From positions 1-37,765 of IMG/VR virus record IMGVR_UViG_643348545_000015: 37,765 nt of DNA; one strand, written 5' to 3'. This document shows, in pieces, positions 698 to 37,765 of the stretch. Within the stretch, counting starts at the first letter, position 1, and each line of letters begins with the position of its first letter. The stretch comes from a virus. Taxonomy: Duplodnaviria > Heunggongvirae > Uroviricota > Caudoviricetes. The notes below the pieces were generated by a model, which was given only the letters and a program-made list of their open reading frames with translations, did no database searches and was not told the DNA's origin. A program made the translations under genes and the position numbers.

Positions 698-1060
698 GGG
701 GCTGATTCTGGATTCGACGGGATTTGCGAAACCCAAGGTGCATGCCGAGGGGCGGTTGGCCTCGTAAAAAGCCGCAAAAAATAGTCGCAAACGACGAAAA
801 CTACGCTTTAGCAGCTTAATAACCTGCTTAGAGCCCTCTCTCCCTAGCCTCCGCTCTTAGGACGGGGATCAAGAGAGGTCAAACCCAAAAGAGATCGCGT
901 GGAAGCCCTGCCTGGGGTTGAAGCGTTAAAACTTAATCAGGCTAGTTTGTTAGTGGCGTGTCCGTCCGCAGCTGGCAAGCGAATGTAAAGACTGACTAAG
1001 CATGTAGTACCGAGGATGTAGGAATTTCGGACGCGGGTTCAACTCCCGCCAGCTCCACCA
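698..1060 (+). ncRNA. ssrA: tmRNA (SsrA), 363 nt
   Basis: Starts GGGGCTGATTCTGGATTCGACGGG, contains the tag reading frame GCAAACGACGAAAACTACGCTTTAGCAGCTTAA (ANDENYALAA*), ends with the tRNA-like acceptor ...GGTTCAACTCCCGCCAGCTCCACCA. Confidence 0.96.
1016..1060. repeat. attL core: 45-bp 3' end of ssrA, direct repeat of 36061-36105
   Basis: ATGTAGGAATTTCGGACGCGGGTTCAACTCCCGCCAGCTCCACCA is identical at both positions; flanking sequence diverges on both sides. Confidence 0.9.
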
Positions 1061-1070
1061 AATAAATCAA

Positions 1071-1103: not shown

Positions 1104-1183
1104 GGTAGTGGCGGCAAAATGGCGACAGACTTTTGCGTCCATCTTGCCTGTCGCCATCTTGAAATCATGCAAAGAGGTTTCAC

Positions 1184-3562: not shown

Positions 3563-6500
3563 GCGTCGTATCCCCCCTGATCGCTGTAGTTACTCCTGGC
3601 TTTTGCCTTCAGCCTGCGTTCACGTTCATCAAGCTGGCGTGCCACCTCCCGCGCAATATCCTGCGCACTTTGTCCTGGCTGCGTCTGAATGATGATCTGC
3701 GTCGGTGCCTCAATCCGGTGAACGGGCGGCACAGTGGCTGCACGACTCACCATCGCTTCGCCGCCTTTCGCGGGAAGTGCCAAAGGATGCAACGGTGGAA
3801 GCTCTGCAGGCGCGGCAGCAACGCCCATCATTCCGGCAACAACGGCAGCCAGTGCAGCTGTATTTCTCCGGCTGGTCACATTTGCCGGGCCGTTAACAAT
3901 TTCCGGCCCGTTTTCACCGACGATGCCAAACTGCCCACGCGGGATATAGCCGCCGCTGTCATACATCCCCGCAAAGCCATATCCCCATGACGGAAAACCC
4001 CCCGATGGCATCATCACTTTACCGTCTGCATTCACCGTCGCAGGTTGCTGACGCGTCACTCTTTCCGGCAGTTTCGCCTTTGCAGCCTCTTTACTGACAA
4101 TGCCGAGTTTCTCCAGCAACCAGGAAACGCCGGATTTCAGGGAGTCCAGCGGATGCATGACCATATTCAGCCCTTCCGCCAGTGCCTCCCCGAATCGCCG
4201 CCCCATTGCCGCTGCACTCTGCAGTTCGGCAGAGGTCGACTTAACGGGCGTCAGCAGATCAGTAAACCAGCCCCACAGCGCCTGTACTTTGTCGCCAATC
4301 CACTGGAACACGGGCTTAAGCGGTTCGAATGCTGCACTGACGGGACCTGCCGCCGCTTTGAATCCTTCCACCACGCCACCAAGAAATGCGGTGATGGGTT
4401 GCCAGTATTTCCAGACAACCAGCGCCACGCCCGCCAGTGCAGTAACCACAAGACCTATCGGACTGAGCAGAGCACCTAACAGACCAGATACGGCATACAG
4501 GGCAACGCGCAGCATCGCCAGTGGACCAGATGCCAGTACTCGCAGCACCGTGCCTGCGGAGGCCAGTCCACCGCGCAGTACCGCCAGAGGATTCATAAAC
4601 ATCACAGCAACAGCACGTAAACCGGATAATCCAGACCGCAAAAGTGCAACCGGCGCACCTGCTACAGTTTTCAGGACATTTCCCGTCAGTGATGCCGTGC
4701 GGCGCAAAGACGACAACGGCGCAGTAAGTAAACCTGCGGCGTTGCCCGATGAAGCAAGCCCGCGTCGCAGCAGTGCAAGTGGTGCGCCAGCCAACCAGGA
4801 CAACGCGCTGCTGGTTCGCGTTACTGCTGCCGTAACGGAAGGTAACGTTTTGATACCCAGCACAGAGAATCCCAGACGGATGACTGCCAGCGGCCCCAGC
4901 ACAGCAGCCAACACCACAGCCAGGGTGCCGAGGCCCACAGTAACAGCAGCCACAACCGCGGCTACTTTCATCAGTGTGCCCGTCAGTTCAGGGTTAGCTT
5001 CCACCCAGCGACGCAACGCCCCCGTGATGCTTTTCACCGTGTACAGAATATCCATCAGCGGCTGGCGCAGCGTTTCGCCCAGGCTGCTGAAGGTGTTCTG
5101 CGCTCCGGTTTTGACCAACAACCACTGCGCAGAAAGTGAGTCCTTGTTAATGTCGGATTCTTTCTGCATCGAACCGAGCGCATCATTGCCCGCTGTCAGT
5201 TTTAGCTGGCGCTGCAGTTCCGGCAGGTTGTTTGCCAGTTTCGCCGCATCATCGCCAAACTCTTTACCAAACAACATGGTCATGGCAGACAGGCGCTTAT
5301 CCTGCGGCAGTGCGTTCACCTTCTCCAGTACGCGCTGGATAGTTCCCATCGCATCCTTCGTCATCTGCTTTTCAATCACTTCAGGATTGAGTTTCAGCAG
5401 ATTCATTCCTTCAAAGAAACTCTTGCTTTGCATGGTCGCAATGGACAATTCACGCACCATCGCGTTGGCAGCACTGGCAGCGACCTCCGGCGCAGCACCC
5501 AGTGTCAGGAAGGTGGAACCCAGCGCCGCCGCTTTACGATAATCCAGACGATCAGCCACACCGCCCAGGCGTTGCATGACATCAATGATGTCTGCCCCTT
5601 TCGACATAGCGTTATCATCCAGATAGTTCAGCGCATCACCGAGCTGTTCAATATTGCGGGTTGGTATTTTGTAGAGCTGGGCGATTTTCCCCAGACTTTC
5701 TGACAGTTCATCAGCTGGCAGCTCAAAGGCTGTTGCCGCCTTTGCTGCCGTACTGGCGAAGGCCAGCAGGTCACGTTTCTGGTCCTCCCAGCTGTCGTCA
5801 GGGTTTGCCACATTCATGCGCGCACCACCTTCAACCAGTGCGGCGAAGTCCACAGCACCGTTTTCCATTGGCAGCTGTTCACTGGCAGCTTTGATGGCAT
5901 CCTGCATTTCGTAAAAACGCGCAGTGCGGTTGCCATTATCGTCACGCAGACCATTGACCTGCTTTGCCACACCTTTCATGGCATCTTCCATGCTGGTATA
6001 GCTTTTTACCGCCGCCATCACTGGCGCGCCCATTGCCAGCCCTGCAGCCGTGGTGGTGGCTCCGGCTCCTGCGATGCGATCGCGCACTTCAAGCCGTCTT
6101 GAGTATTGTTCTCTGGCAGCGTTCATCCGTGCCTGTTGTTCACCCAGACGTTTAAGTGCTTTTTTCTGGCCCTCCAGTGCCTGACGAGTTTCTTCGGCAT
6201 TTTTCTTAAGTTCTCGCTGGGCACTACTGAGTTGTCTGGTATCAATCCCTGATTCTTTAAGTGCCTGACGTTGTCTCTGGACCGCCCCCAACAAGCCGTT
6301 ATAGGTCTGCTGAAGTTCCTGTACTCGTGTTTTGGCCTGACTGAATAACTTTGCCTGCGCGGCGGTTGGCCTGTTAGTGGCAGCAAATTGTGTGGCGAGT
6401 TTTGCCGCCTCTTCGCGGGCTGCGTTCAGGTTGTTGGCTGTTATGGCTAGTTGCGAGCGCGTCTTGCGAAATTCATCAATTCTGCCAGCCTGCTTATTCA

Positions 6501-6636
6501 GTTCTTTGAGGCTGTTTCGGGTATTCTGAATTGCGCCAGCCAGCTCTTTCGAACTGGCCTGTGCAGCACGGAATGGGCGGGTGAGTTTGTCAACCGCATT
6601 AAGAATGACCTGCAGGCGCAGGTTATTATCACTCAT
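3559..6636 (-). CDS. T: Tail tape-measure protein T
   Basis: 1025-aa Ala/Gly/Leu-rich ORF with coiled-coil N-terminus, following the E/E' frameshift pair. Confidence 0.9.
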   Translation of the reverse strand: MSDNNLRLQVILNAVDKLTRPFRAAQASSKELAGAIQNTRNSLKELNKQAGRIDEFRKTRSQLAITANNLNAAREEAAKLATQFAATNRPTAAQAKLFSQAKTRVQELQQTYNGLLGAVQRQRQALKESGIDTRQLSSAQRELKKNAEETRQALEGQKKALKRLGEQQARMNAAREQYSRRLEVRDRIAGAGATTTAAGLAMGAPVMAAVKSYTSMEDAMKGVAKQVNGLRDDNGNRTARFYEMQDAIKAASEQLPMENGAVDFAALVEGGARMNVANPDDSWEDQKRDLLAFASTAAKAATAFELPADELSESLGKIAQLYKIPTRNIEQLGDALNYLDDNAMSKGADIIDVMQRLGGVADRLDYRKAAALGSTFLTLGAAPEVAASAANAMVRELSIATMQSKSFFEGMNLLKLNPEVIEKQMTKDAMGTIQRVLEKVNALPQDKRLSAMTMLFGKEFGDDAAKLANNLPELQRQLKLTAGNDALGSMQKESDINKDSLSAQWLLVKTGAQNTFSSLGETLRQPLMDILYTVKSITGALRRWVEANPELTGTLMKVAAVVAAVTVGLGTLAVVLAAVLGPLAVIRLGFSVLGIKTLPSVTAAVTRTSSALSWLAGAPLALLRRGLASSGNAAGLLTAPLSSLRRTASLTGNVLKTVAGAPVALLRSGLSGLRAVAVMFMNPLAVLRGGLASAGTVLRVLASGPLAMLRVALYAVSGLLGALLSPIGLVVTALAGVALVVWKYWQPITAFLGGVVEGFKAAAGPVSAAFEPLKPVFQWIGDKVQALWGWFTDLLTPVKSTSAELQSAAAMGRRFGEALAEGLNMVMHPLDSLKSGVSWLLEKLGIVSKEAAKAKLPERVTRQQPATVNADGKVMMPSGGFPSWGYGFAGMYDSGGYIPRGQFGIVGENGPEIVNGPANVTSRRNTAALAAVVAGMMGVAAAPAELPPLHPLALPAKGGEAMVSRAATVPPVHRIEAPTQIIIQTQPGQSAQDIAREVARQLDERERRLKAKARSNYSDQGGYDA

Positions 6637-7065
6637 CGTTGGCCCCGCTTCTCTGAATCGCTTTATACCGCCATTCCAGCACTTCGGTCAGCGGCATAAC
6701 GTCAGTAACGGATGGCGGCCAGTGAAAGATGGTGGCGATATCAGCCACCAGATCGTCAACCGTCAGGCTGTCGGTAAACCGGCAAGCACCGACTTCTTCA
6801 ACAAAAAAGTGACAACCTCAACCGACATGGCAGTGAGATCTGCCGGGTCCATCTCTGCAATTTCCTGTGCAGTCAGTGCCGGACTGGAGATGCGGGGGAT
6901 CACGGTCATCATCGCGTTCACATCCATATCCATAATGGCCTGCAGGCGTGTACCGCGCAGCGCACCGGACTGCGGTTTACGCAGCACAATTTCGGTGATT
7001 TCTGTTTTACCGCGCTTGATGGGGGTATCCAGTTGAATAGTCTTTTCAGTCTGCTTATCGCTCAT
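6629..7065 (-). CDS. E: Tail assembly chaperone E and E+E' (programmed -1 frameshift)
   Basis: The 0 frame ends at 6763 (100 aa). Slippery heptamer T_TTT_TTG on the minus strand (6803-6809) lets the -1 frame continue to a TGA at 6629-6631 that overlaps the T start codon. Confidence 0.8.
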
Positions 7066-7119
7066 TTTGCTGTCCTGTAAATTGGGTTCTGGCGCGGTAT
7101 CCCGCGCCGTTCAGATACA

Positions 7120-7635
7120 TCAGAGGCCGAGGGCGTTGCGGTGCGCTTCCATCAGGTCCACACCGTCCACAATTTCCACCATGTTGATAAGGTCCACTTC
7201 ATAGAGCACCTCACCATTTATAGTCAGCTTCGCGTAGCTGTTGGTACTGGTCACTTTGGTGGTGTTGCTTTCGCCCGTCTTCCACTCGCCGGAATCCACT
7301 TCTTTGTGACGTCCACGCACCACAAGCTCCACGGCCTGCACTTCCCCGGTATCGTCACGCTGGATAGAGCCGGTAAAGCGCAACTGGATACCATCCACCG
7401 TGGCTTTGCCCATCTGCTTAAACAGCAGCAGTTCAGTACCACCAATGGAAAATTCCGTATCCAGTGCGCCGTCATCCAGCCCCAGATCCACATCCACTGC
7501 ACCCGGCATTCCGCCGCCGCGATACTTCTCATATTTGCGGGTAAATTTCGGCAGCGTCAGCGACTCAACGATCCCCTGCCAGTTGTTCCCGTCATTAAAC
7601 AGGTTCAGGTGTTTTAATTTGCGTGGTAAAGCCAT
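7120..7635 (-). CDS. FII: Tail tube protein FII
   Basis: 171 aa MALPRKLKHLNLFNDGNNWQG...; order FI-FII-E-T as in P2. Confidence 0.9.
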   Translation of the reverse strand: MALPRKLKHLNLFNDGNNWQGIVESLTLPKFTRKYEKYRGGGMPGAVDVDLGLDDGALDTEFSIGGTELLLFKQMGKATVDGIQLRFTGSIQRDDTGEVQAVELVVRGRHKEVDSGEWKTGESNTTKVTSTNSYAKLTINGEVLYEVDLINMVEIVDGVDLMEAHRNALGL

Positions 7636-7644
7636 GTTGTCCCC

Positions 7645-8817
7645 TTACGCGCTGACCTGGCTGGAGAAATTAACCAGGTACTGATCGGTGATGCGCTGAC
7701 GCAGCATCAGGTTTTCAAGTGGCGGCACTGGCGTGTAGTCGTAGTCGATGGTGAGTTTTCCGGCTTTCAGCGTGTCTTTGTCGTTCACCGACTCATCCAG
7801 CCAGCAATCACCACCAATGAGATAGCCCTGACTGACCAGGCTGCGCATTTTGGCGCGGATACCCTCGATAATGTCGCGGGCCAGCGACGGATTCAGCGGT
7901 TTATCCACCGCCCACATGTGCGCTTCTGCCATCGTGTCCGTCAGCACCTGCGCCGTGCGGGTGTAGTTTTCGAAGGCAAAGAGCGGGTCATCACTCAGGC
8001 AGCGGGAACCCCAGAAGCGAAAACCGTCTTTGCGGATAAGGGTGGTGACGTCGTTCTGGTTCAGCAGTCCCGCATCGGTTGCCGGGTCCTGCAGATCCCA
8101 GAACACATCAGCAGAAATTCCGGTGACACCGTTAACGCCCACGTTGGACAGGCTTTTGTGCCATCCGGTCTGCTCGTCAATTTTGGCGCGCAGACCAAGC
8201 GCACGGGCGGTGGCATAAGCCGTTGCTTCGGCATTCAGCACCGTGTCCCAGCCAGTAAAGTCGGGCCAGATCAGCATTCCTTCACGCTGACTGAAGTTTT
8301 CACGGTAAGTGATTGCTTCCTGCACCGTCTTGCAACCATACGCTGACAGGTAAGCAAATCCACGCAGGCTTTGCGCCACACTCAGCAACTCAGTAGCTAC
8401 CGCCTTCGTGTCGTGACCTGGCACGCCGAGAATGCGCGGTTTAACGCCGAGCTGTGACTGGGCAGATAACAGGGCTTTCATGCCTGTTTTTTTACCTTCA
8501 GCGGTCACTGCGCCGATGATATTGGTCGTGGTTTCTTCTTCCGTTTCACCCTGCGGCACACGCACAACAACGGTCACGGGTTTTGCCTGGTCAGCGATGG
8601 CATCCAGCGAACGAGCCAGCGTGCCTGACTCACCCGCTTTACCGCTGGCAGTCAGCACATCAGTGATCAGCACGGGTTTATTAAGAGGAAACATTTTTGC
8701 ATCGGCATCATCGCCCGTGCAGACCATACCCACGATGGCGGTGCTCACCGTGGTAATGGATCGGGTGCCTTCGTTGACTTCAACAACGCGCACCCCGTGG
8801 TGGTAATCCTGAGCCAT
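7645..8817 (-). CDS. FI: Contractile tail sheath protein FI
   Basis: 390 aa [24 protein letters not shown]...; RBS AGGAGG upstream. Confidence 0.92.
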
Positions 8818-20943: not shown

Positions 20944-22710
20944 ATGAACACCACACTGACACCCGCAGATCTCGATCCCCGTCGGCAGGCCATGCTGCTG
21001 TACTTTCAGGGATACCGTGTAGCCCGCATTGCTGAAATGCTGGGCGAGAAAGTTGCAACCGTTCACAGCTGGAAGAAACGCGACAAGTGGGGTGACTATG
21101 GGCCGCTGGATCAGATGCAGCTCACCACCGCCGCACGCTACTGCCAGCTCATTATGAAGGAGCACAAAGAAGGGAAAGATTTCAAAGAGATTGACCTGCT
21201 GGCGCGCCAGTCGGAACGCCACGCGCGGATCGGCAAGTTTAACAATGGCGGCAACGAAGCCGACTTACCCCCTAACGTCGCCAACCGCAACAAAGGCCCG
21301 CGCCGTCAGCCGGAAAAGAATGTTTTCACCGATGAGCAGATTGAGAAGCTGGAAGAAATCTTCCATTCCTCCATGTTCAACTACCAGCGCCACTGGTGGG
21401 AAGCCGGAAAAACCAACCGCATCCGCAACCTGCTGAAGTCACGCCAGATCGGCGCGACCTTTTACTTTGCCCGTGAAGCCCTGATTGACGCTCTGCTTAC
21501 CGGACGTAACCAGATTTTCCTTTCCGCCAGCAAGGCACAGGCCCACGTCTTTAAGCAGTACATCATCGACTTCGCCAAAGAAGTGGAAGTGGAGCTGAAA
21601 GGCGATCCGATGGTGCTTCCCAACGGGGCCACACTGTATTTCCTCGGCACCAATGCCCGCACGGCCCAGAGTTACCACGGCAACCTGTATCTGGATGAAT
21701 ATTTCTGGATACCGAAATTCCAGGAGCTGCGCAAAGTGGCTTCCGGTATGGCTATTCACAAAAAATGGCGACAAACCTATTTTTCCACGCCATCCAGCCT
21801 GACACACAGTGCTTATCCGTTCTGGTCCGGTGCGCTATTCAACCGTGGGCGCAATAAAGCCGACAAGGTGGACATCGACCTGTCCCACAGCAATCTGGCT
21901 CCAGGCCTGCTGTGTGCAGACGGGCAATACCGCCAGATAGTCACCGTGGAAGATGCGGTGCGCGGCGGCTGTAACCTGTTCGACCTTGACCAGTTGCGCA
22001 TGGAATACAGCCCGGACGAATACCAGAACCTGCTGATGTGTGAATTCGTGGACGATCTCGCGTCCGTATTTCCGCTCAGCGAGCTGCAGGCATGCATGGT
22101 GGACAGTTGGGAAGTCTGGACCGACTTTCATGCACTGGCCCTGCGCCCGTTTGGCTGGCGAGAAGTGTGGATCGGTTATGACCCGGCAAAAGGTACGCAG
22201 AACGGCGACAGCGCCGGATGCGTGGTGGTGGCACCGCCAGCCGTGCCAGGCGGTAAGTTTCGCATTCTTGAGCGTCACCAGTGGCGCGGGATGGACTTCC
22301 GCGCCCAGGCTGACGCCATCAAAAAACTGACCGAACAGTACAACGTGACCTATATCGGTATCGACTCGACAGGTGTCGGTCACGGAGTTTACGAGAACGT
22401 GAAAGCGTTCTTTCCTGCCGTCCGGGAGTTTGTCTACAACCCCAACGTTAAAAATGCCCTGGTACTCAAGGCCTACGACATTATCAGCCACCGCCGTCTG
22501 GAGTTTGACGCCGGGCACACCGACATTGCGCAGTCATTCATGGCAATCCGTCGTGCCACCACCGCCAGTGGCAACCGCCCGACCTATGAAGCCAGCCGCA
22601 GCGAAGAAGCCAGCCACGCCGATCTGGCCTGGGCAACAATGCACGCACTGTTTAACGAACCGCTGCAGGGCGAGTCCGCCAATACCAGCAATATTGTGGA
22701 GATTTTTTGA
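20944..22710 (+). CDS. P: Terminase large (ATPase) subunit P
   Basis: 588 aa MNTTLTPADLDPRRQAMLLYFQGYRVARIAEMLGEK... Confidence 0.92.
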   Translation: MNTTLTPADLDPRRQAMLLYFQGYRVARIAEMLGEKVATVHSWKKRDKWGDYGPLDQMQLTTAARYCQLIMKEHKEGKDFKEIDLLARQSERHARIGKFNNGGNEADLPPNVANRNKGPRRQPEKNVFTDEQIEKLEEIFHSSMFNYQRHWWEAGKTNRIRNLLKSRQIGATFYFAREALIDALLTGRNQIFLSASKAQAHVFKQYIIDFAKEVEVELKGDPMVLPNGATLYFLGTNARTAQSYHGNLYLDEYFWIPKFQELRKVASGMAIHKKWRQTYFSTPSSLTHSAYPFWSGALFNRGRNKADKVDIDLSHSNLAPGLLCADGQYRQIVTVEDAVRGGCNLFDLDQLRMEYSPDEYQNLLMCEFVDDLASVFPLSELQACMVDSWEVWTDFHALALRPFGWREVWIGYDPAKGTQNGDSAGCVVVAPPAVPGGKFRILERHQWRGMDFRAQADAIKKLTEQYNVTYIGIDSTGVGHGVYENVKAFFPAVREFVYNPNVKNALVLKAYDIISHRRLEFDAGHTDIAQSFMAIRRATTASGNRPTYEASRSEEASHADLAWATMHALFNEPLQGESANTSNIVEIF

Positions 22711-23744
22711 TGGGAAAGAGTAAGAAAAACCGCGCTGCGGCGACGAATCAGATCCAGCATAAAAACCAGACTTCAGCCGAAGCATTCAGCTTCGGTGATC
22801 CCGTTCCAGTACTTGACCGCCGCGAACTGCTGGACTATGTGGAATGTGTTCAGACAGATCGCTGGTATGAGCCTCCCGTCAGCTTTGACGGACTGGCGCG
22901 CACCTTCCGCGCTGCCGTGCATCACAGTTCCCCGATTGCAGTAAAGTGCAACATTCTGACCAGTACCTATATCCCTCATCCGCTGCTCAGCCAACAGGCT
23001 TTTTCGCGTTTTGTGCAGGACTATCTGGTATTTGGTAACGCCTACCTGGAGAAACGCACGAACCGATTCGGTGAAGTTATCGCCCTTGAGCCTGCGCTGG
23101 CAAAATACACCCGACGCGGGTTAGACCTGGATACCTACTGGTTTGTGCAATACGGTATGACAACCCAGCCGTATCAGTTCACGAAAGGCAGCATTTTTCA
23201 TCTGATGGAACCGGACATCAACCAGGAGATCTACGGCCTGCCCGGCTATCTTTCTGCCATTCCATCCGCCCTGCTCAACGAATCCGCCACGCTGTTCCGC
23301 CGTAAGTATTACATCAACGGTAGTCATGCAGGCTTCATCATGTACATGACCGACGCCGCGCAGAATCAGGAGGATGTGAACAACCTCCGCAACGCGATGA
23401 AAAGCGCCAAAGGTCCAGGCAACTTCCGCAATCTGTTTATGTACTCGCCTAACGGCAAAAAGGACGGACTTCAGATTATCCCGTTGTCAGAAGTCGCAGC
23501 GAAGGATGAATTTCTTAACATCAAGAACGTGAGTCGGGATGACATGATGGCAGCGCACCGCGTGCCGCCGCAAATGATGGGGATTATGCCGAATAATGTT
23601 GGGGGGTTTGGGGATGTCGAAAAGGCGAGTCATGTATTTGTTCGTAACGAGTTAATTCCATTACAAAAAAGGCTAATTGAATTAAATGAATGGCTTAATG
23701 ACGAAATTATTCGTTTTGACGAATATAAATTAGGCAATACTTGA
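22710..23744 (+). CDS. Q: Portal protein Q
   Basis: 344 aa from the ATG overlapping the P stop (TGATG); the ORF track begins at TTG 22707. Confidence 0.9.
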   Translation: MGKSKKNRAAATNQIQHKNQTSAEAFSFGDPVPVLDRRELLDYVECVQTDRWYEPPVSFDGLARTFRAAVHHSSPIAVKCNILTSTYIPHPLLSQQAFSRFVQDYLVFGNAYLEKRTNRFGEVIALEPALAKYTRRGLDLDTYWFVQYGMTTQPYQFTKGSIFHLMEPDINQEIYGLPGYLSAIPSALLNESATLFRRKYYINGSHAGFIMYMTDAAQNQEDVNNLRNAMKSAKGPGNFRNLFMYSPNGKKDGLQIIPLSEVAAKDEFLNIKNVSRDDMMAAHRVPPQMMGIMPNNVGGFGDVEKASHVFVRNELIPLQKRLIELNEWLNDEIIRFDEYKLGNT

Positions 23745-23753
23745 TTAAAGCCT

Positions 23754-23787
23754 GTTTAAACTGGCTGTCGGAACAGCCAGTTTAAAC
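23754..23787. terminator. Bidirectional hairpin between Q and the convergent cargo operon
   Basis: Perfect 15-bp stem GTTTAAACTGGCTGT / ACAGCCAGTTTAAAC with loop CGGA. Confidence 0.55.
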
Positions 23788-24630
23788 ACCGGCACCAATG
23801 AAATCGCCATATGAATCTTCTTCAAGGCTGATGTATTCTACCCTCCATTGATCCATCCGCCTCAATGCATACAGGGAGAAATGAGTATCAGCAACAGCTA
23901 TGCACGTATTCAATTCTATAAGTTCTGAATGCCCCAAGGTTGGATCACCATAAAACTTATAAAACAAAGCCTTTAGATCAGAACATGTTTGTTCAGCCGC
24001 TCTTCTGGCATCGGGGCCACCTTCAGTTGCATCATAAACAACATTGATAGAAAGCTCATATGGTATGCCTTCCTCAAGATCGTTAAATCTTTCTTCGCCC
24101 AAATCGAAAAAAACTCCGATCAAATGCTCTGCGTTTGTGGCGATAATATCCGCAACTTCTTTTTCGAAAATAAACTTTTTATCCTCGTCGTAAGCCCGCA
24201 AGCGCTCTTCAAACGAGTTAGGAAACGCTGGACGACCATACTTAGCAGCTAACCATTGCTTAAGAGCTTGTTTCTCTTCTGTGCTAATGGAGAATGCTGG
24301 ATCGTTTTCCTCACAACAGAAAGCTTCTTTAGGAATGATGACTTTCCTTTCATGCCGGAGCTCTACTGCATTCTTCTTCGCACTTTCTGGGTTTTCAAAA
24401 CATAGATCGAGTATTCTCGGATGCTTAGCTCTTTTCATCCTGCTTGACCCCTTTTTCAAGGGGCCAAACATCAGTTCCACGTTTTTTTCTGAATTACTCT
24501 GTAAATCACAATCATGCGTTATAACTACAACTTTATGGTTCGTTTCATCAGGCTGCAGAATTCCAAGTGAAACGGCATCATCATGTTTAAGTACATGCCC
24601 CTGACGCCATGATGTTCCTCGTACCAACAT
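23782..24630 (-). CDS. Hypothetical protein, cargo operon gene 3
   Basis: 282 aa; ATG 9 nt after the gene 2 stop; no motif I can assign by eye; AT-rich codon usage. Confidence 0.6.
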   Translation of the reverse strand: MLVRGTSWRQGHVLKHDDAVSLGILQPDETNHKVVVITHDCDLQSNSEKNVELMFGPLKKGSSRMKRAKHPRILDLCFENPESAKKNAVELRHERKVIIPKEAFCCEENDPAFSISTEEKQALKQWLAAKYGRPAFPNSFEERLRAYDEDKKFIFEKEVADIIATNAEHLIGVFFDLGEERFNDLEEGIPYELSINVVYDATEGGPDARRAAEQTCSDLKALFYKFYGDPTLGHSELIELNTCIAVADTHFSLYALRRMDQWRVEYISLEEDSYGDFIGAGV

Positions 24631-24639
24631 AAATGTGAT

Positions 24640-25302
24640 TTATTCCTCTACCGTTCCAGGAATTGAAATAGATGACTTCCAATCATCTGTCGGTTTCGCC
24701 TTGCTTGCTAAGTAATTGGCCGATTCAGCAGCAGCATTCATCGCTTTAGCTTCATCAATCAATACCTGAACTGCCCTATTCCAATCCTCACCTTCTTTTA
24801 CTACGTCCATTAATGACTTACCATTAAATGCTTTCATTTTCACCAATAGCTTCGCATCATGGAGTCCAGCTTTGGAAAAAGAGTCAGCGACATTACTAAG
24901 GTTGGTAATGAATTGCACTTTTGAAGCATCATCAGGCTGGTTCTCCCCTGACAACCATTTATAGAGAGCCTGCCGAGTTATCCCCAAATCCTTTGCCAGT
25001 TCTGACATTGATGGAGACAGCACTTCTCGAATATTAGCTAAATGTTGGGCAACATTCCTGACATCAACCTCAGGAGAAATTGCAGGCGTGTACGTTGATT
25101 CTATGGAATCAAATGCAAACTGAACCCTTGGCTGAACATACTGACGCCATTGCTTATAAGCATTTACAGGGTATGAAGCCCCCGTACCAACTAATAGTAA
25201 AGATGCGGCGACAGCAACAACACCTGATACACATGAGCTTGACTGCAAATTTGGAGAATATCGATCTACAGAGCCTATGCTTCCGGTGGGAATTGCATAC
25301 AT
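24640..25302 (-). CDS. Hypothetical protein with N-terminal hydrophobic helix and HTH motif, cargo operon gene 2
   Basis: Start MYAIPTG... 7 nt after GGAGGTGA; hydrophobic CVSGVVAVAASLLLVGTGASY; HTH-like SMSELAKDLGITRQALYKWLSGE. Confidence 0.6.
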   Translation of the reverse strand: MYAIPTGSIGSVDRYSPNLQSSSCVSGVVAVAASLLLVGTGASYPVNAYKQWRQYVQPRVQFAFDSIESTYTPAISPEVDVRNVAQHLANIREVLSPSMSELAKDLGITRQALYKWLSGENQPDDASKVQFITNLSNVADSFSKAGLHDAKLLVKMKAFNGKSLMDVVKEGEDWNRAVQVLIDEAKAMNAAAESANYLASKAKPTDDWKSSISIPGTVEE

Positions 25303-25321
25303 TTTAGTCACCTCCGTTGTT

Positions 25322-26131
25322 TCAGTGCCATTTAGTACGGGCAAAATCTGAAACCATGCCTTCAAATGCTTCTTTAACTTTACTATGCAACGAAAGAATC
25401 TGTTTTTCAATTAACTGCAAATCAGTTGACATGTTGCCTTCAACATAATGATCTGTATCAATTATTGCGTGCATACGATGCTCTGTGTTACTAAATCTCG
25501 GCAACGGCAGTAAACCATTAGGAATCATATCTGGCGGAAAACCTAGCTGACCATTCATCTTATGTATTCGTGAAACCATAAATCCATTAGGGATCAATGG
25601 CTCAACACATGTCTGATATACGGACTCTTGTATAGACTGTATTGGCGTCCATCCGAAATCAACACCATGAAGTTCCTTTACAAGATACTGCTCAATTGTT
25701 TCGCTTTTCTCAGGAAACACAGCATCCAAATATCGAAGCCCAATCCGACTTAACAGCGATGGCTTAGCAAATTCTAGAACTTTGCTCAGACCAAGTATCA
25801 ATGACGAGATGAAAGATACATGGTTATCATAATATGTTGTATGGAACGTAATGAAATCGTTGCCTAAAACAAAACCAGATCTTCTATCTGCATCAATCAT
25901 CAACCAACTTGTCACAGGCTCAAATGAATGTACCGGTGGCTCATTGGGGTTTTTTATTTCAAATTTCAACTGAGTTGTATTGGAAACCTCAAATAAAGGA
26001 AATCCCTCAACTCTTAGCGCATCTTGTATGTCTGGAACATACTTACTCATTGCAGCTATTGGAGTAAACTTTACCTGTACCAATGCATAGTAAACGGGCG
26101 CATTGGACATACGTTCGCTGTTAGTACTCAT
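25322..26131 (-). CDS. Hypothetical protein, cargo operon gene 1
   Basis: 269 aa, RBS AAGGAGG before the ATG. The N-terminal pattern NAPVYYALVQVKF is vaguely reminiscent (from memory, unverified) of the uncharacterised TIGR04255 family. Confidence 0.6.
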   Translation of the reverse strand: MSTNSERMSNAPVYYALVQVKFTPIAAMSKYVPDIQDALRVEGFPLFEVSNTTQLKFEIKNPNEPPVHSFEPVTSWLMIDADRRSGFVLGNDFITFHTTYYDNHVSFISSLILGLSKVLEFAKPSLLSRIGLRYLDAVFPEKSETIEQYLVKELHGVDFGWTPIQSIQESVYQTCVEPLIPNGFMVSRIHKMNGQLGFPPDMIPNGLLPLPRFSNTEHRMHAIIDTDHYVEGNMSTDLQLIEKQILSLHSKVKEAFEGMVSDFARTKWH

Positions 26132-33644: not shown

Positions 33645-34277
33645 ATGTTAAACATCAGAATGGGTTCCGATACGGGAGGTAAGGCAGCTATTGAGAGGCT
33701 GCTTGAGGCTTATGGATTCACAACTAAGCAGGCATTAAGCGAGCACCTGAATGTCTCAAAAAGTACTATGGCAAACAGAGTGTTACGTGACAGTTTTCCT
33801 GCTGACTGGATAATTCAGTGTGCACTAGAAACCGGTGTTTCGTTACTTTGGTTAGCCACTGGACAGGGAAGCATGAAAGAAGGATACGAGCCTGAGAAAA
33901 GATCTCATAACGAGAACAAACAAGCAATTAAACCGTTATCCAAACTCATAACTCCATCTATTCCTAAAGGAACCTTGGAAAATGGACAACTCAGTATTGA
34001 TGAAGAGATTTTCCTAGACCACAGCATATTACCTGCAGATTATGAAGAATCGATGTTCTTAGAAACCCCTACTGATTGTTATCTCATCGATAAATCAGTT
34101 AAACAAGTCAGCAATGGATTCTGGCTTATCAATATTGATGGAATGATTATTATTGCAAAAATCATGCGGATTCCCGGCAATAAGATTGTAGTAAATCAAG
34201 ATGAAGCGTCTTTCGAGTGCTCTGCTGATGATGTGGAAGTTATTGGGCGTGCAGTCAAAGTAATAAAGAGTATCTAA
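33645..34277 (+). CDS. cI: Immunity repressor CI (186-type)
   Basis: 210 aa with N-terminal HTH (...LSEHLNVSKSTMANRVLRDSF...CALETGVSLLWLATGQG); I see no LexA-like Ser-Lys autocleavage motif; directly upstream of int. Confidence 0.8.
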   Translation: MLNIRMGSDTGGKAAIERLLEAYGFTTKQALSEHLNVSKSTMANRVLRDSFPADWIIQCALETGVSLLWLATGQGSMKEGYEPEKRSHNENKQAIKPLSKLITPSIPKGTLENGQLSIDEEIFLDHSILPADYEESMFLETPTDCYLIDKSVKQVSNGFWLINIDGMIIIAKIMRIPGNKIVVNQDEASFECSADDVEVIGRAVKVIKSI

Positions 34278-34279
34278 AC

Positions 34280-35296
34280 ATGACTGTCAGAAAACAGCCA
34301 AACGGTAAATGGTTGTGCGAGTGCTATCCCAATGGACGCAATGGCAAGCGCGTGCGTAAGCAATTTGCTACGAAAGGCGAAGCCATTGCTTTTGAAAGCT
34401 TCACAATGGAAGAAGTGAACAAAAAACCATGGCTGGGGGAAAAGGAAGATCGGCGACACCTATCAGAATTAATTGAGCAGTGGTATTCCCTGTATGGTCA
34501 AACACTCGCAGACCCCAAGCGCCTCATAGCGAAACTTAGAATTATCTGTAATGGTCTAGGCGATCCCATCGCTTCAGAACTGACAGCCGGTGACTTTACG
34601 AAATACCGCGAAGCACGGTTAAAAGGTGAAGTACGAAATGAAGATGGCACGTTTATGTCGCCCGTTAAGCCCCGCACGGTAAACCTTGAACAGCGCAATC
34701 TATCATCTGTTTTTGGTACACTGAAAAAGCTGGGCCACTGGTCAGCCCCCAACCCGCTTGCTGGGCTGCCAACATTTAAAATTGCTGAGAGTGAATTGGC
34801 GTTCCTGACCCCGGAAGAAATTAAACGTCTGCTGGATGCCTGCGCCGATTCTCAAAGCTCCAGCCTGCTTTTGATTGCAAAAATATGCCTGGCCACCGGC
34901 GCACGCTGGAGCGAAGCCGAAAACCTGCAGAGTCATCAGGTATCAAAATACCGTATCACTTATACCAAGACCAAAGGCAAGAAAAACCGAACTGTGCCTA
35001 TTTCTAAGGATTTATATGAAGAACTGCCTAAGAATAGGGGGAAGTTATTCACCCCATGCAGAAAAGCCTTTGAGCGTGCAGTAAAGCGGGCTGGTATCGA
35101 TCTGCCAGAGGGTCAATGTACTCACGTTCTGCGTCATACATTCGCTAGCCATTTTATGATGAATGGTGGAAACATATTGGTTTTGCGGGATATCCTAGGA
35201 CATTCAGATATAAAAATGACCATGGTCTATGCACACTTCGCCCCAGACCATTTAGAAGATGCCGTAACTAAAAATCCTTTATTTAATTTGAGGTAA
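34280..35296 (+). CDS. int: Tyrosine integrase (P2 Int family)
   Basis: 338 aa with C-terminal catalytic region ...HVLRHTFASHFMMNGGNILVLRDILGHSDIKMTMVYAHF... Confidence 0.93.
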   Translation: MTVRKQPNGKWLCECYPNGRNGKRVRKQFATKGEAIAFESFTMEEVNKKPWLGEKEDRRHLSELIEQWYSLYGQTLADPKRLIAKLRIICNGLGDPIASELTAGDFTKYREARLKGEVRNEDGTFMSPVKPRTVNLEQRNLSSVFGTLKKLGHWSAPNPLAGLPTFKIAESELAFLTPEEIKRLLDACADSQSSSLLLIAKICLATGARWSEAENLQSHQVSKYRITYTKTKGKKNRTVPISKDLYEELPKNRGKLFTPCRKAFERAVKRAGIDLPEGQCTHVLRHTFASHFMMNGGNILVLRDILGHSDIKMTMVYAHFAPDHLEDAVTKNPLFNLR

Positions 35297-35306
35297 GTAG
35301 TAATTT

Positions 35307-35975
35307 ATGAATAGCGAACTAGAGTTACTTATAAAAATATTATTCCCTTCCCTATCTGCCATTATATCCTTATTAGGGCTTAAAACAGGGTGGACTTATA
35401 AAAAAGACAAACTATTCACATCACGTAAAAACATTAGCGAATTTTCATATCAGATGTATAAAAGCAGTGAAGATCCGACCTTCAAAAAACTGGCGGAAGA
35501 TTACGGCATTGCTGCATTAACCAAAGATAACACATTGACAAAAAAACAAAGATTAATATTACTCAACACAACAAACCCCGTTAGCGATATAGATGATTAT
35601 TCCAAATGTCAAAGTCTAATTTCCATTACCACCCATAAAGAAATATTCGCATGGAATAAAAAAAGATATAAATACAGCATATATAGAAAATTAATAAAAA
35701 TTATAACAACTCTAATTTACTTCATGGGCAGTCTCATCGTAGCACTTCCTTTCAGTTATTCTGTTGTAGTAAGTGCTAAGATGATGGAGAAGATAAACCA
35801 TCTAACTACTTGGCAATACTTTGGTTTAAGCAGCTATTTTGTGGTATCGGGAGTAGCAATATGCTTTATCTGCCTAGATAAGCTCTCCAAGATTAAGATC
35901 GCCGAGAGATTAATCGTTTCAAATAGGCGTTTAGGCGACAAATGCAGTGGCGGCACTTTGGCGGCAGAAAGTTAA
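35307..35975 (+). CDS. AT-rich hypothetical membrane protein (cargo)
   Basis: 222 aa with about three hydrophobic helices (LELLIKILFPSLSAIISLLGL; IITTLIYFMGSLIVALPFSYSVVV; YFGLSSYFVVSGVAICFICL); Lys/Asn/Ile-rich; starts 11 nt after the int stop. Confidence 0.6.
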   Translation: MNSELELLIKILFPSLSAIISLLGLKTGWTYKKDKLFTSRKNISEFSYQMYKSSEDPTFKKLAEDYGIAALTKDNTLTKKQRLILLNTTNPVSDIDDYSKCQSLISITTHKEIFAWNKKRYKYSIYRKLIKIITTLIYFMGSLIVALPFSYSVVVSAKMMEKINHLTTWQYFGLSSYFVVSGVAICFICLDKLSKIKIAERLIVSNRRLGDKCSGGTLAAES

Positions 35976-36060: not shown

Positions 36061-36105
36061 ATGTAGGAATTTCGGACGCGGGTTCAACTCCCGCCAGCTC
36101 CACCA
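36061..36105. repeat. attR core: displaced 45-bp 3' end of ssrA
   Basis: Identical to 1016-1060. Confidence 0.9.
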
Positions 36106-36234
36106 ATCATGATTGGACGGTGTAAGGACTACACCAACAAAAACAGGAAGTTATAAGTCTCAGCAGGACACCGACCAGACGGTGAGGAGACAAAAAAGGA
36201 TACGCAACGGAGTCGCGACTCCCTATGACATTAA

Positions 36235-36257
36235 AGCCCGCTGATGCGGGCTTTTTT
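36235..36257 (+). terminator. Rho-independent terminator-like hairpin
   Basis: AGCCCGC-TGAT-GCGGGCT followed by TTTTTTATT. Confidence 0.5.

Positions 36258-36688: not shown

Positions 36689-37765
<1,077 letters not shown>

Follow-up and report, generated by a model that had tools for sequence, protein, structure and literature searches.

In phage lambda, the rexAB genes lie in the transcription unit of the cI repressor. For P2-like phages, accessory genes have been described at several hotspots: old/tin between gpA and gpQ, the hotspot defined by Rousset et al. 2022 (PMC9122126), Z/fun in the tail region, a third hotspot lying between a tail gene and cI (2024 preprint, 10.1101/2024.10.15.618418), and the interval between int and att, reported as a minor defence hotspot (PMC13586616). 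As for the P4 hotspot, six of eight randomly picked unknown cargos gave protection against phages (PMC13586616). Here, we describe a 222-amino acid (aa) open reading frame (ORF) located between the integrase gene (int) and the right attachment site (attR) of a prophage in the IMG/VR record IMGVR_UViG_643348545_000015 (positions 1 to 37,765; this whole stretch of 37,765 nucleotides (nt) is called the window below). The window consists of Escherichia coli chromosome and a 35.1-kb P2-family prophage of the 186/Fels-2-like type (Peduoviridae). We propose that the ORF would represent a single-gene cargo cassette, acquired horizontally into the int-attP slot of this 186/Fels-2-like prophage residing in ssrA, and we consider it evenly balanced whether its product is an anti-phage membrane protein, produced in the lysogen, that keeps other phages out.

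Like the cargo of P2-like hotspots, the ORF is accessory and AT-rich and occupies a set position flanked by conserved core features, and sister phages carry unrelated alternatives at the same place, including known defence genes. Its GC content is 34.5%, compared with 40.0% in cI, 46.4% in int and 51.4% in the whole prophage, and the two 500-nt bins lying over it are the lowest of the window (0.378 and 0.356). A previous reading of the window from its letters and ORF list (the sequence-only reading) had described a 222-aa, AT-rich membrane-protein gene beginning 11 nt after int on the same strand, between int and attR. This description was confirmed: the ORF is present with an ATG start on the plus strand (Table 1), the spacer that separates it from the int stop codon comprises 10 nt (the ATG lies 11 nt past the last base of that codon), and the attR core follows downstream. 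The product had also been called rich in Lys, Asn and Ile, which proved right for Lys (11.3%) and Ile (10.4%) and wrong for Asn (just 3.6%); Leu and Ser account for 12.2% and 11.3% of residues, respectively. The ORF list contained no sizeable antisense ORF competing for this interval, and an Rfam scan of the window detected tmRNA alone, with no RNA family overlapping the ORF.

The ORF can be regarded as a genuine gene under purifying selection, since its family shows low ratios of nonsynonymous to synonymous substitution (dN/dS; 0.126, 0.102 and 0.059 for the three pairs with unsaturated dS, Nei-Gojobori method), comprises 72 representatives with one shared architecture, and yields a confident AlphaFold model. 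A search of a set of 5.8 billion proteins found 14 clusters at E<=1e-46, with Siccibacter colletis and Klebsiella quasipneumoniae among the sources in addition to E. coli. With a hidden Markov model (HMM) derived from these clusters, 72 proteins were retrieved from 1.84 billion cluster representatives at E<=1e-3, and 37 of these passed a cutoff of E<=1e-10. Nearly all of them are 200-230 aa long, and they range over beta- and gammaproteobacteria; the members named by source come from Orbaceae, Rosenbergiella and Burkholderia ubonensis, and each is labelled 'hypothetical protein'. Truncated or frameshifted copies were also encountered among the relatives (P0012, P0013, P0014 and L006). At the level of megablast, the ORF was present in 29 of 5426 complete E. 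coli genomes, where it is annotated as hypothetical; the carrier strains originated from humans, cattle, poultry, frogs, soil and water, without a niche or pathotype pattern. The protein belongs to the same family as PHROG 21256 (function unknown; E=9.9e-154, residues 1-222 against positions 1-222 of the 222-position profile), already catalogued from prophages. The PHROG is narrower than the family delimited here, whose 72 representatives include chromosomal copies outside prophages. No match to the protein was found by tblastn in 50,697 deposited phage genomes, and the family thus appears to be known from prophages and not from sequenced virions.

About three transmembrane (TM) helices had been predicted by the sequence-only reading, and three hydrophobic segments were indeed located by Kyte-Doolittle hydropathy in 19-residue windows (about aa 5-28, 128-150 and 169-190), coinciding with long helices of the AlphaFold2 model. 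When computed with a 15-sequence alignment, the model had a predicted local distance difference test score (pLDDT) of 49; with a 59-sequence alignment, the pLDDT was 92.3 and the predicted template modelling score (pTM) was 0.81. In the model, a helix of aa 2-54 represents TM1 running on out of the membrane, and it is followed by helices 57-72, 79-86 and 91-100, a beta-hairpin (105-116), a helix of aa 124-146 (TM2), two short helices, and a helix of aa 168-214 that combines TM3 with a long extension. The region of aa 29-127 contains 19 Lys+Arg against 11 Asp+Glu and the C-terminal tail seven against four, and the N-terminus is acidic. Because of this charge distribution and the positive-inside rule, we infer a topology in which the N-terminus and the loop of aa 151-168 are periplasmic and aa 29-127 and the C-terminus are cytoplasmic. 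Accordingly, the chain would start outside and enter through TM1, form a conserved domain of about 100 aa in the cytoplasm, cross the membrane again by TM2 and TM3 with a short, variable loop exposed to the periplasm, and end in a cytoplasmic helix. From the three hydrophobic helices and the positive-inside charge pattern, its predicted location is the inner membrane.

Conservation is distributed unevenly along this layout. The periplasmic loop reached 0.75 bits, compared with 1.3-1.9 bits elsewhere (alignment A2), and the cytoplasmic domain was the most conserved part in both alignments A1 and A2. The domain contains the motifs SRKxISEF, YGIAALTKD, LTxxQRxxLL, NPVxDID and IFxWxKKRYKY..YR, and invariant columns span L85-R127; in the wider family, the motifs RRxxSxFA, YAxELGYAALxGD, LxxxQRxxLL, FxWKxxR....YR and AExLI were recognized. 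W116, R127, Y138 and A199 are near-invariant across the aligned family, which retains one architecture throughout. No conserved His, Cys or Ser pattern pointing to catalysis was present in the family alignments.

We then surveyed the slot in a sample of 80 IMG/VR loci picked by int similarity (89-99% identity), defining it as the interval from the int stop codon to the conserved attP arm, which begins at position 35948 of the window. At least nine unrelated cargo types occurred among the 80 loci, between constant flanks formed by the 3' end of int and the TGGCGGCA arm. The commonest content was a protein of about 400 aa (21 loci), which is annotated as 'RES' in phage Cartapus; this domain label is the depositors' annotation, and Pfam gave no confirmation. 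An empty slot of 5 bp, as in Salmonella phage SEN8, was seen in 17 loci, a protein of about 340 aa with an N-terminal TM helix in 15, and a protein of about 500 aa in eight. Three loci encoded a dCTP deaminase of 577-585 aa (PADLOC PDLC02373, E=2.2e-146), two the family of the 222-aa protein and another two a DCD-like protein together with ThyX; single cases made up the remainder (a SMEK_N/Aga-REase-like protein, E=2.7e-30, an insertion sequence (IS) and others). The GC content of the slot cargo is 27-39%, the IS transposase excepted. The ORF therefore shares with the int-att hotspot its location, a variable occupancy with constant flanks, and known defence genes as alternatives. The slots of loci L031-L110 are situated at roughly positions 6015-7600 of the locus. 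Two of them (L040, 6041-7596, and L098, 6044-7611) contain a gene for a dCTP-deaminase/dUTPase-like protein with a C-terminal TM helix followed by a ThyX thymidylate synthase gene, an unusual nucleotide-metabolism pair for a lysogeny-operon slot.

The arm itself starts with paired TGGCGGCA motifs. The pattern TGGCGRCAnnnTGGCGRCAG has just two copies in the window (1109-1128 and 35948-35967), with zero expected in shuffled sequences, and both lie just inside an att site, which is why the paired motifs are probably arm-type binding sites of Int. The E. coli allele has no stop codon of its own and reads 14 non-conserved codons (tail LGDKCSGGTLAAES) from the attP arm; other alleles end at about 207-209 aa, upstream of the arm.

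Relatives of the 222-aa protein were encoded in 22 IMG/VR loci. In every locus where cI and int were detected by tblastn (all but L022), the order was cI, int, the gene and the conserved attP arm; in L020/L021 and L028, extra cargo was inserted between int and the three-helix gene. The identities of the ORF and of int were discordant: L015 and L020 share 87% identity in the ORF and 68% in int, and L002 and L015 share 97% in int and 49% in the ORF. The cassette thus travels from one phage backbone to another. L028 contains, at 7640-7978, part of a second int 3' end (...EDAVTKNPLTNL), which separates the three-helix gene from a gene for a 328-aa membrane-protein cargo. This recombination scar, as it seems to be, suggests that cassettes were acquired in tandem through recombination within the int 3' end. 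We also considered diversifying selection as the cause of about 50% ORF identity at about 92% int identity, and rejected it for dN/dS near 0.1; the divergence is better explained by weaker constraint and cassette exchange. With SEN8 and 17 of the 80 related prophages lacking any cargo in the slot, these comparisons show an accessory, swappable and horizontally exchanged gene, dispensable for the phage and not tied to morphogenesis or integration.

The family extends beyond this slot. The gene follows cI-int in the window, in L002, in L015-L028 and in L121, an order that occurs in Rosenbergiella, outside this phage lineage, and it stands directly after cI in other 186-like prophages (L113, L118). 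In K. quasipneumoniae (L003-L005, 8001-8624), an orphan homologue about 50% identical is located between genes for an FAD monooxygenase and a LysR regulator. It belongs to a cluster of 245 sequences, occupies one fixed chromosomal locus and has 44.9% GC amid 62% GC, which suggests a domesticated former phage cargo gene. A further homologue was found as an orphan gene in an Orbaceae genome, and that of B. ubonensis lies inside a methylase/DUF2357-PDDEXK/Vsr restriction island. The homologues were AT-shifted in eight of nine other genomes examined. There was no conserved partner gene across the examined loci, so the protein would act alone.

As for expression, the placement for co-transcription with cI-int proposed by the sequence-only reading was upheld: the ORF is on the same strand, the gap is 10 nt, and a consensus scan found no terminator on the plus strand from cI to the hairpin at 36233-36254. 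In the 186-like Salmonella prophage BTP5, the repressor and integrase genes are transcribed in all tested conditions at a low level (PMC7067206). Given the short gap, the position of the first terminator and the transcription of cI and int in a 186-like lysogen, co-transcription of the ORF with cI-int is plausible, and the ORF would most likely form the third cistron of the cI-int message, with low-level transcription in the lysogen. Promoter-like sites were no more frequent than in shuffled sequences, and none was situated in the 3' part of int (consensus scan). Of the strict features of a moron, the ORF thus shows a divergent base composition and lacks a promoter and terminator of its own in the consensus scan.

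Neither the protein nor any of 59 aligned relatives had a significant family in Pfam, NCBIfam or PADLOC. The matches to Man-6-P_recep, MAG0920_fam, 1TM-TIR, Cas2 and 7tm_6 in these libraries were dismissed as being at chance level. A Foldseek search of the AlphaFold model against PDB and BFVD gave nothing at E<=0.001 (best BFVD match E=0.53), and the family profile retrieved only designed helical repeats from the PDB sequences. A full-text literature search for WP_001083624 found no paper. The gene resembles those of lambda RexB/RexA and P22 SieA/SieB in specifying a small multi-helix inner-membrane protein from the repressor's strand and, apparently, the repressor's transcription unit, but the proteins are not homologous to it. 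Moreover, RexB has four helices and the 222-aa protein three, and the latter has no RexA-like partner, being encoded by a single gene with its own cytoplasmic domain. No sequence or fold homology to SieA, Imm, Sp or HK97 gp15-type exclusion proteins was found by tblastn, PHROGs or BFVD, and the protein is unrelated, in sequence as in structure, to Old, Tin, Fun and the PADLOC models.

The layout of the protein, in which a cytoplasmic domain of about 100 aa separates TM1 from TM2, a short loop joins TM2 to TM3 and the tail is cytoplasmic, as well as its long cytoplasmic helices and its size, is reminiscent of ExbB, TolQ and ZorA, which appeared in the Foldseek list at E of about 1-2.5 and a template modelling score (TM-score) of about 0.2. 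In contrast to ExbB, TolQ, MotA and ZorA, however, none of the 59 members had a MotA_ExbB (PF01618) match in Pfam, and no ExbD/TolR/MotB/ZorB-type gene adjoins the ORF or the examined homologues. Homology to ExbB/TolQ was therefore rejected: the membrane layout alone is alike, with no Pfam support, no significant structural match and no ExbD-like neighbour.

In our reading, the protein would protect the lysogen from other phages, acting by itself. This is argued from the known defence genes carried by the slot, the report on the int-att hotspot, the screen of P4 cargo and the B. ubonensis island. As for the mechanism, we tentatively favour a self-contained sensor-effector, a version that is rather unlikely to hold as it stands and is still preferred to a block of entry. 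The conserved cytoplasmic domain would sense a cue of infection, and the Ser/Thr/Gly-rich TM helices would then compromise the membrane, resulting in exclusion of the abortive-infection type. The preference is based on the cytoplasmic location of the conserved part, the minimal periplasmic exposure and the existence of chromosomal and restriction-island homologues. A mode of action confined to blocking the entry of phage genomes at the inner membrane seems unlikely to us. We would judge it somewhat short of evenly balanced that the family constitutes a new one-gene membrane defence, composed of a three-helix effector and a cytoplasmic sensor whose fold has no counterpart among solved structures, which 186-like phages throughout Enterobacterales would carry in their lysogeny operon and which K. 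quasipneumoniae would have domesticated as a fixed chromosomal gene.

Several observations weigh against a role in exclusion. The library, phage-genome and structure searches revealed no homology to a known superinfection-exclusion, abortive-infection or defence protein. The match of 1TM-TIR (PADLOC PDLC02977) was limited to one of 59 members at E=0.0073 and was rejected, the model being helical with one beta-hairpin and not TIR-like. The Shine-Dalgarno sequence is weak (GAGG 13 nt upstream of ATG), and the AT-richness may permit silencing, which makes expression uncertain. The low dN/dS gives no indication of diversifying selection. The prior by association comes mainly from the P4 and the main P2 hotspots and not from the int-att slot, whose cargo is itself mostly uncharacterised: the proteins of about 400, 340, 500 and 387 aa, like the 222-aa protein, had no match in Pfam or PADLOC. 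Finally, two distant homologues, P0045 and P0058, are located beside PAAR, Tox-PAAR-like and Tox-GHH2 loci (L115, L120), which may be a coincidence in variable islands or may reflect an immunity-type role. The functional label is, in our assessment, guilt by association, and the interpretation as an exclusion or conversion gene given by the sequence-only reading appears to be partly supported.

A conserved cytoplasmic part combined with an unconstrained periplasmic loop is also what would be expected of a protein binding a conserved host component. The gene might thus serve lysogenic conversion unrelated to phages, altering envelope physiology, for example through the binding of a host inner-membrane complex or transporter via the cytoplasmic domain, to the benefit of the host or the prophage in some niche. 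Fixation of the 245-sequence cluster at one K. quasipneumoniae locus between metabolic genes and the ExbB/TolQ-like layout (with a Foldseek listing at E of about 1-2.5 only) fit such a function. We nevertheless find it improbable, as the library scans revealed no domain pointing to a pathway, the carriers come from diverse sources with no niche or pathotype pattern, and the occurrence is sporadic (29/5426 complete E. coli genomes). Still less credit can be given to an immunity-type protein acting against a membrane-targeting toxin of competitors, be it a bacteriocin or a type VI/PAAR-linked effector. Proteins conferring immunity to pore-forming toxins are usually small multi-helix inner-membrane proteins, and P0045 and P0058 do neighbour toxin loci, but the PAAR link is confined to two of about 12 distinct contexts. 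In one of these (L115), the gene lies outside the PAAR operon and is oriented towards it, and in the other (L120), it comes five genes after the toxin. Furthermore, most members reside in 186-like lysogeny operons with no toxin nearby, and such immunity proteins do not typically have a conserved cytoplasmic domain of this size.

The position of the ORF within the cI-int transcription unit, together with the overlap of its 3' end with the probable Int arm sites, might speak for a role in the prophage itself, either in maintenance or addiction or in modulating induction, excision or the timing of lysis. Such a role is, however, hardly probable: in close relatives with near-identical int and attP arms the slot is empty or otherwise filled, so the gene is dispensable, homologues exist outside prophages, and only the E. 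coli allele overlaps the arm sites, the others ending upstream of them. Finally, the weak ribosome-binding signal and the truncated or frameshifted copies (P0012, P0013, P0014, L006) could be signs of a non-functional, decaying ORF hitch-hiking beside int. This is largely refuted already by purifying selection (dN/dS 0.06-0.13), by the same architecture being kept across beta- and gammaproteobacteria and by co-variation strong enough for a model with pLDDT 92, and we consider it very improbable.

If protection against phages by this protein were real, a compact one-gene membrane defence without known relatives would be added to the repertoire of E. coli and Klebsiella, and the little-studied int-attP slot of 186/Fels-2-like phages would be a productive place to look. 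The clean conserved flanks of the slot, with the int 3' end on one side and the TGGCGGCA arm sites on the other, ease systematic mining and the swapping of cassettes. If the protein were inactive against phages, it would still be a conserved orphan membrane protein, and its fixed copy in K. quasipneumoniae would need another explanation. The unnamed family in a recently recognised minor hotspot is a feature of an ordinary kind, and it would be a reasonable choice when genes are picked for a defence screen.

The features of the locus are listed in Table 1. The prophage is integrated at the 3' end of ssrA (tmRNA gene 698-1060, Rfam), where the 46-bp att core reads ATGTAGGAATTTCGGACGCGGGTTCAACTCCCGCCAGCTCCACCAA, and a chromosomal ORF begins at 36788 in the right flank beyond attR. 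At the right end of the prophage, an apl-like gene and cII are on the minus strand, and cI, int and the 222-aa ORF are on the plus strand. This reading of the genes is shared by RefSeq for an identical prophage in strain 2012EL-2448, where the ORF is listed as a hypothetical protein.

Table 1. Coordinates of the 222-aa ORF, its predicted protein segments and the surrounding features in the window
Feature	Position	Strand	Basis and remarks
attL core	1016-1061	+	3' end of ssrA; exact 46-bp repeat
cI repressor, 186-type, first gene of presumed lysogenic operon	33645-34277	+	Pfam Phage_CI_repr, Phage_CI_C
int, tyrosine integrase, directly upstream of the 222-aa ORF	34280-35296	+	Pfam Int_N, Phage_integrase
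AT-rich cargo cassette, 651 bp, filling the slot from int stop codon to conserved attP arm	35297-35947	+	Slot mapping (110 loci); alignment with SEN8 and Cartapus
222-aa ORF, predicted three-helix inner-membrane protein	35307-35975	+	ORF list; ATG start; PHROG 21256; RefSeq WP_001083624.1
TM1, aa 5-28	35319-35390	+	Hydropathy, charge; acidic N-terminus predicted periplasmic, Lys-rich after the helix
Predicted cytoplasmic domain, aa 29-127	35391-35687	+	Helices and one beta-hairpin; most conserved part
TM2, aa 128-150, with near-invariant Y138 and P148	35688-35756	+	Hydropathy, alignment, model
Short predicted periplasmic loop, aa 151-168	35757-35810	+	Least conserved segment
TM3, aa 169-190, continuing as cytoplasmic helix to about aa 214 with conserved AExLI	35811-35876	+	Hydropathy, alignment, model
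Paired TGGCGGCA motifs, start of conserved attP arm	35948-35967	+	Probable Int arm-type sites; overlap last ORF codons
attR core	36061-36106	+	Exact 46-bp duplicate of 1016-1061
First downstream terminator-like hairpin, native ssrA terminator beyond attR	36233-36254	+	Consensus pattern match; likely end of a cI-int-ORF transcript

Elsewhere in the prophage, three AT-rich genes on the minus strand (23782-26131) occupy the place of the classical old/tin defence hotspot of P2, with the portal gene (22707-23744) on one side and the DinI/gpA region on the other. Their products are an unknown protein of 282 aa, a helix-turn-helix (HTH) regulator of 256 aa and a TIGR04255-family protein of 269 aa. 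PADLOC gave no real match for these genes (RmrA at E=8e-4, for the HTH regulator only), and they represent a second uncharacterised cargo set of the same prophage. In the identical prophage of 2012EL-2448, a recombinase (invertase) gene stands amid frameshifted or partial tail-fibre and tfa genes (L117, 10395-12500), the usual invertible host-range segment, annotated as decayed.

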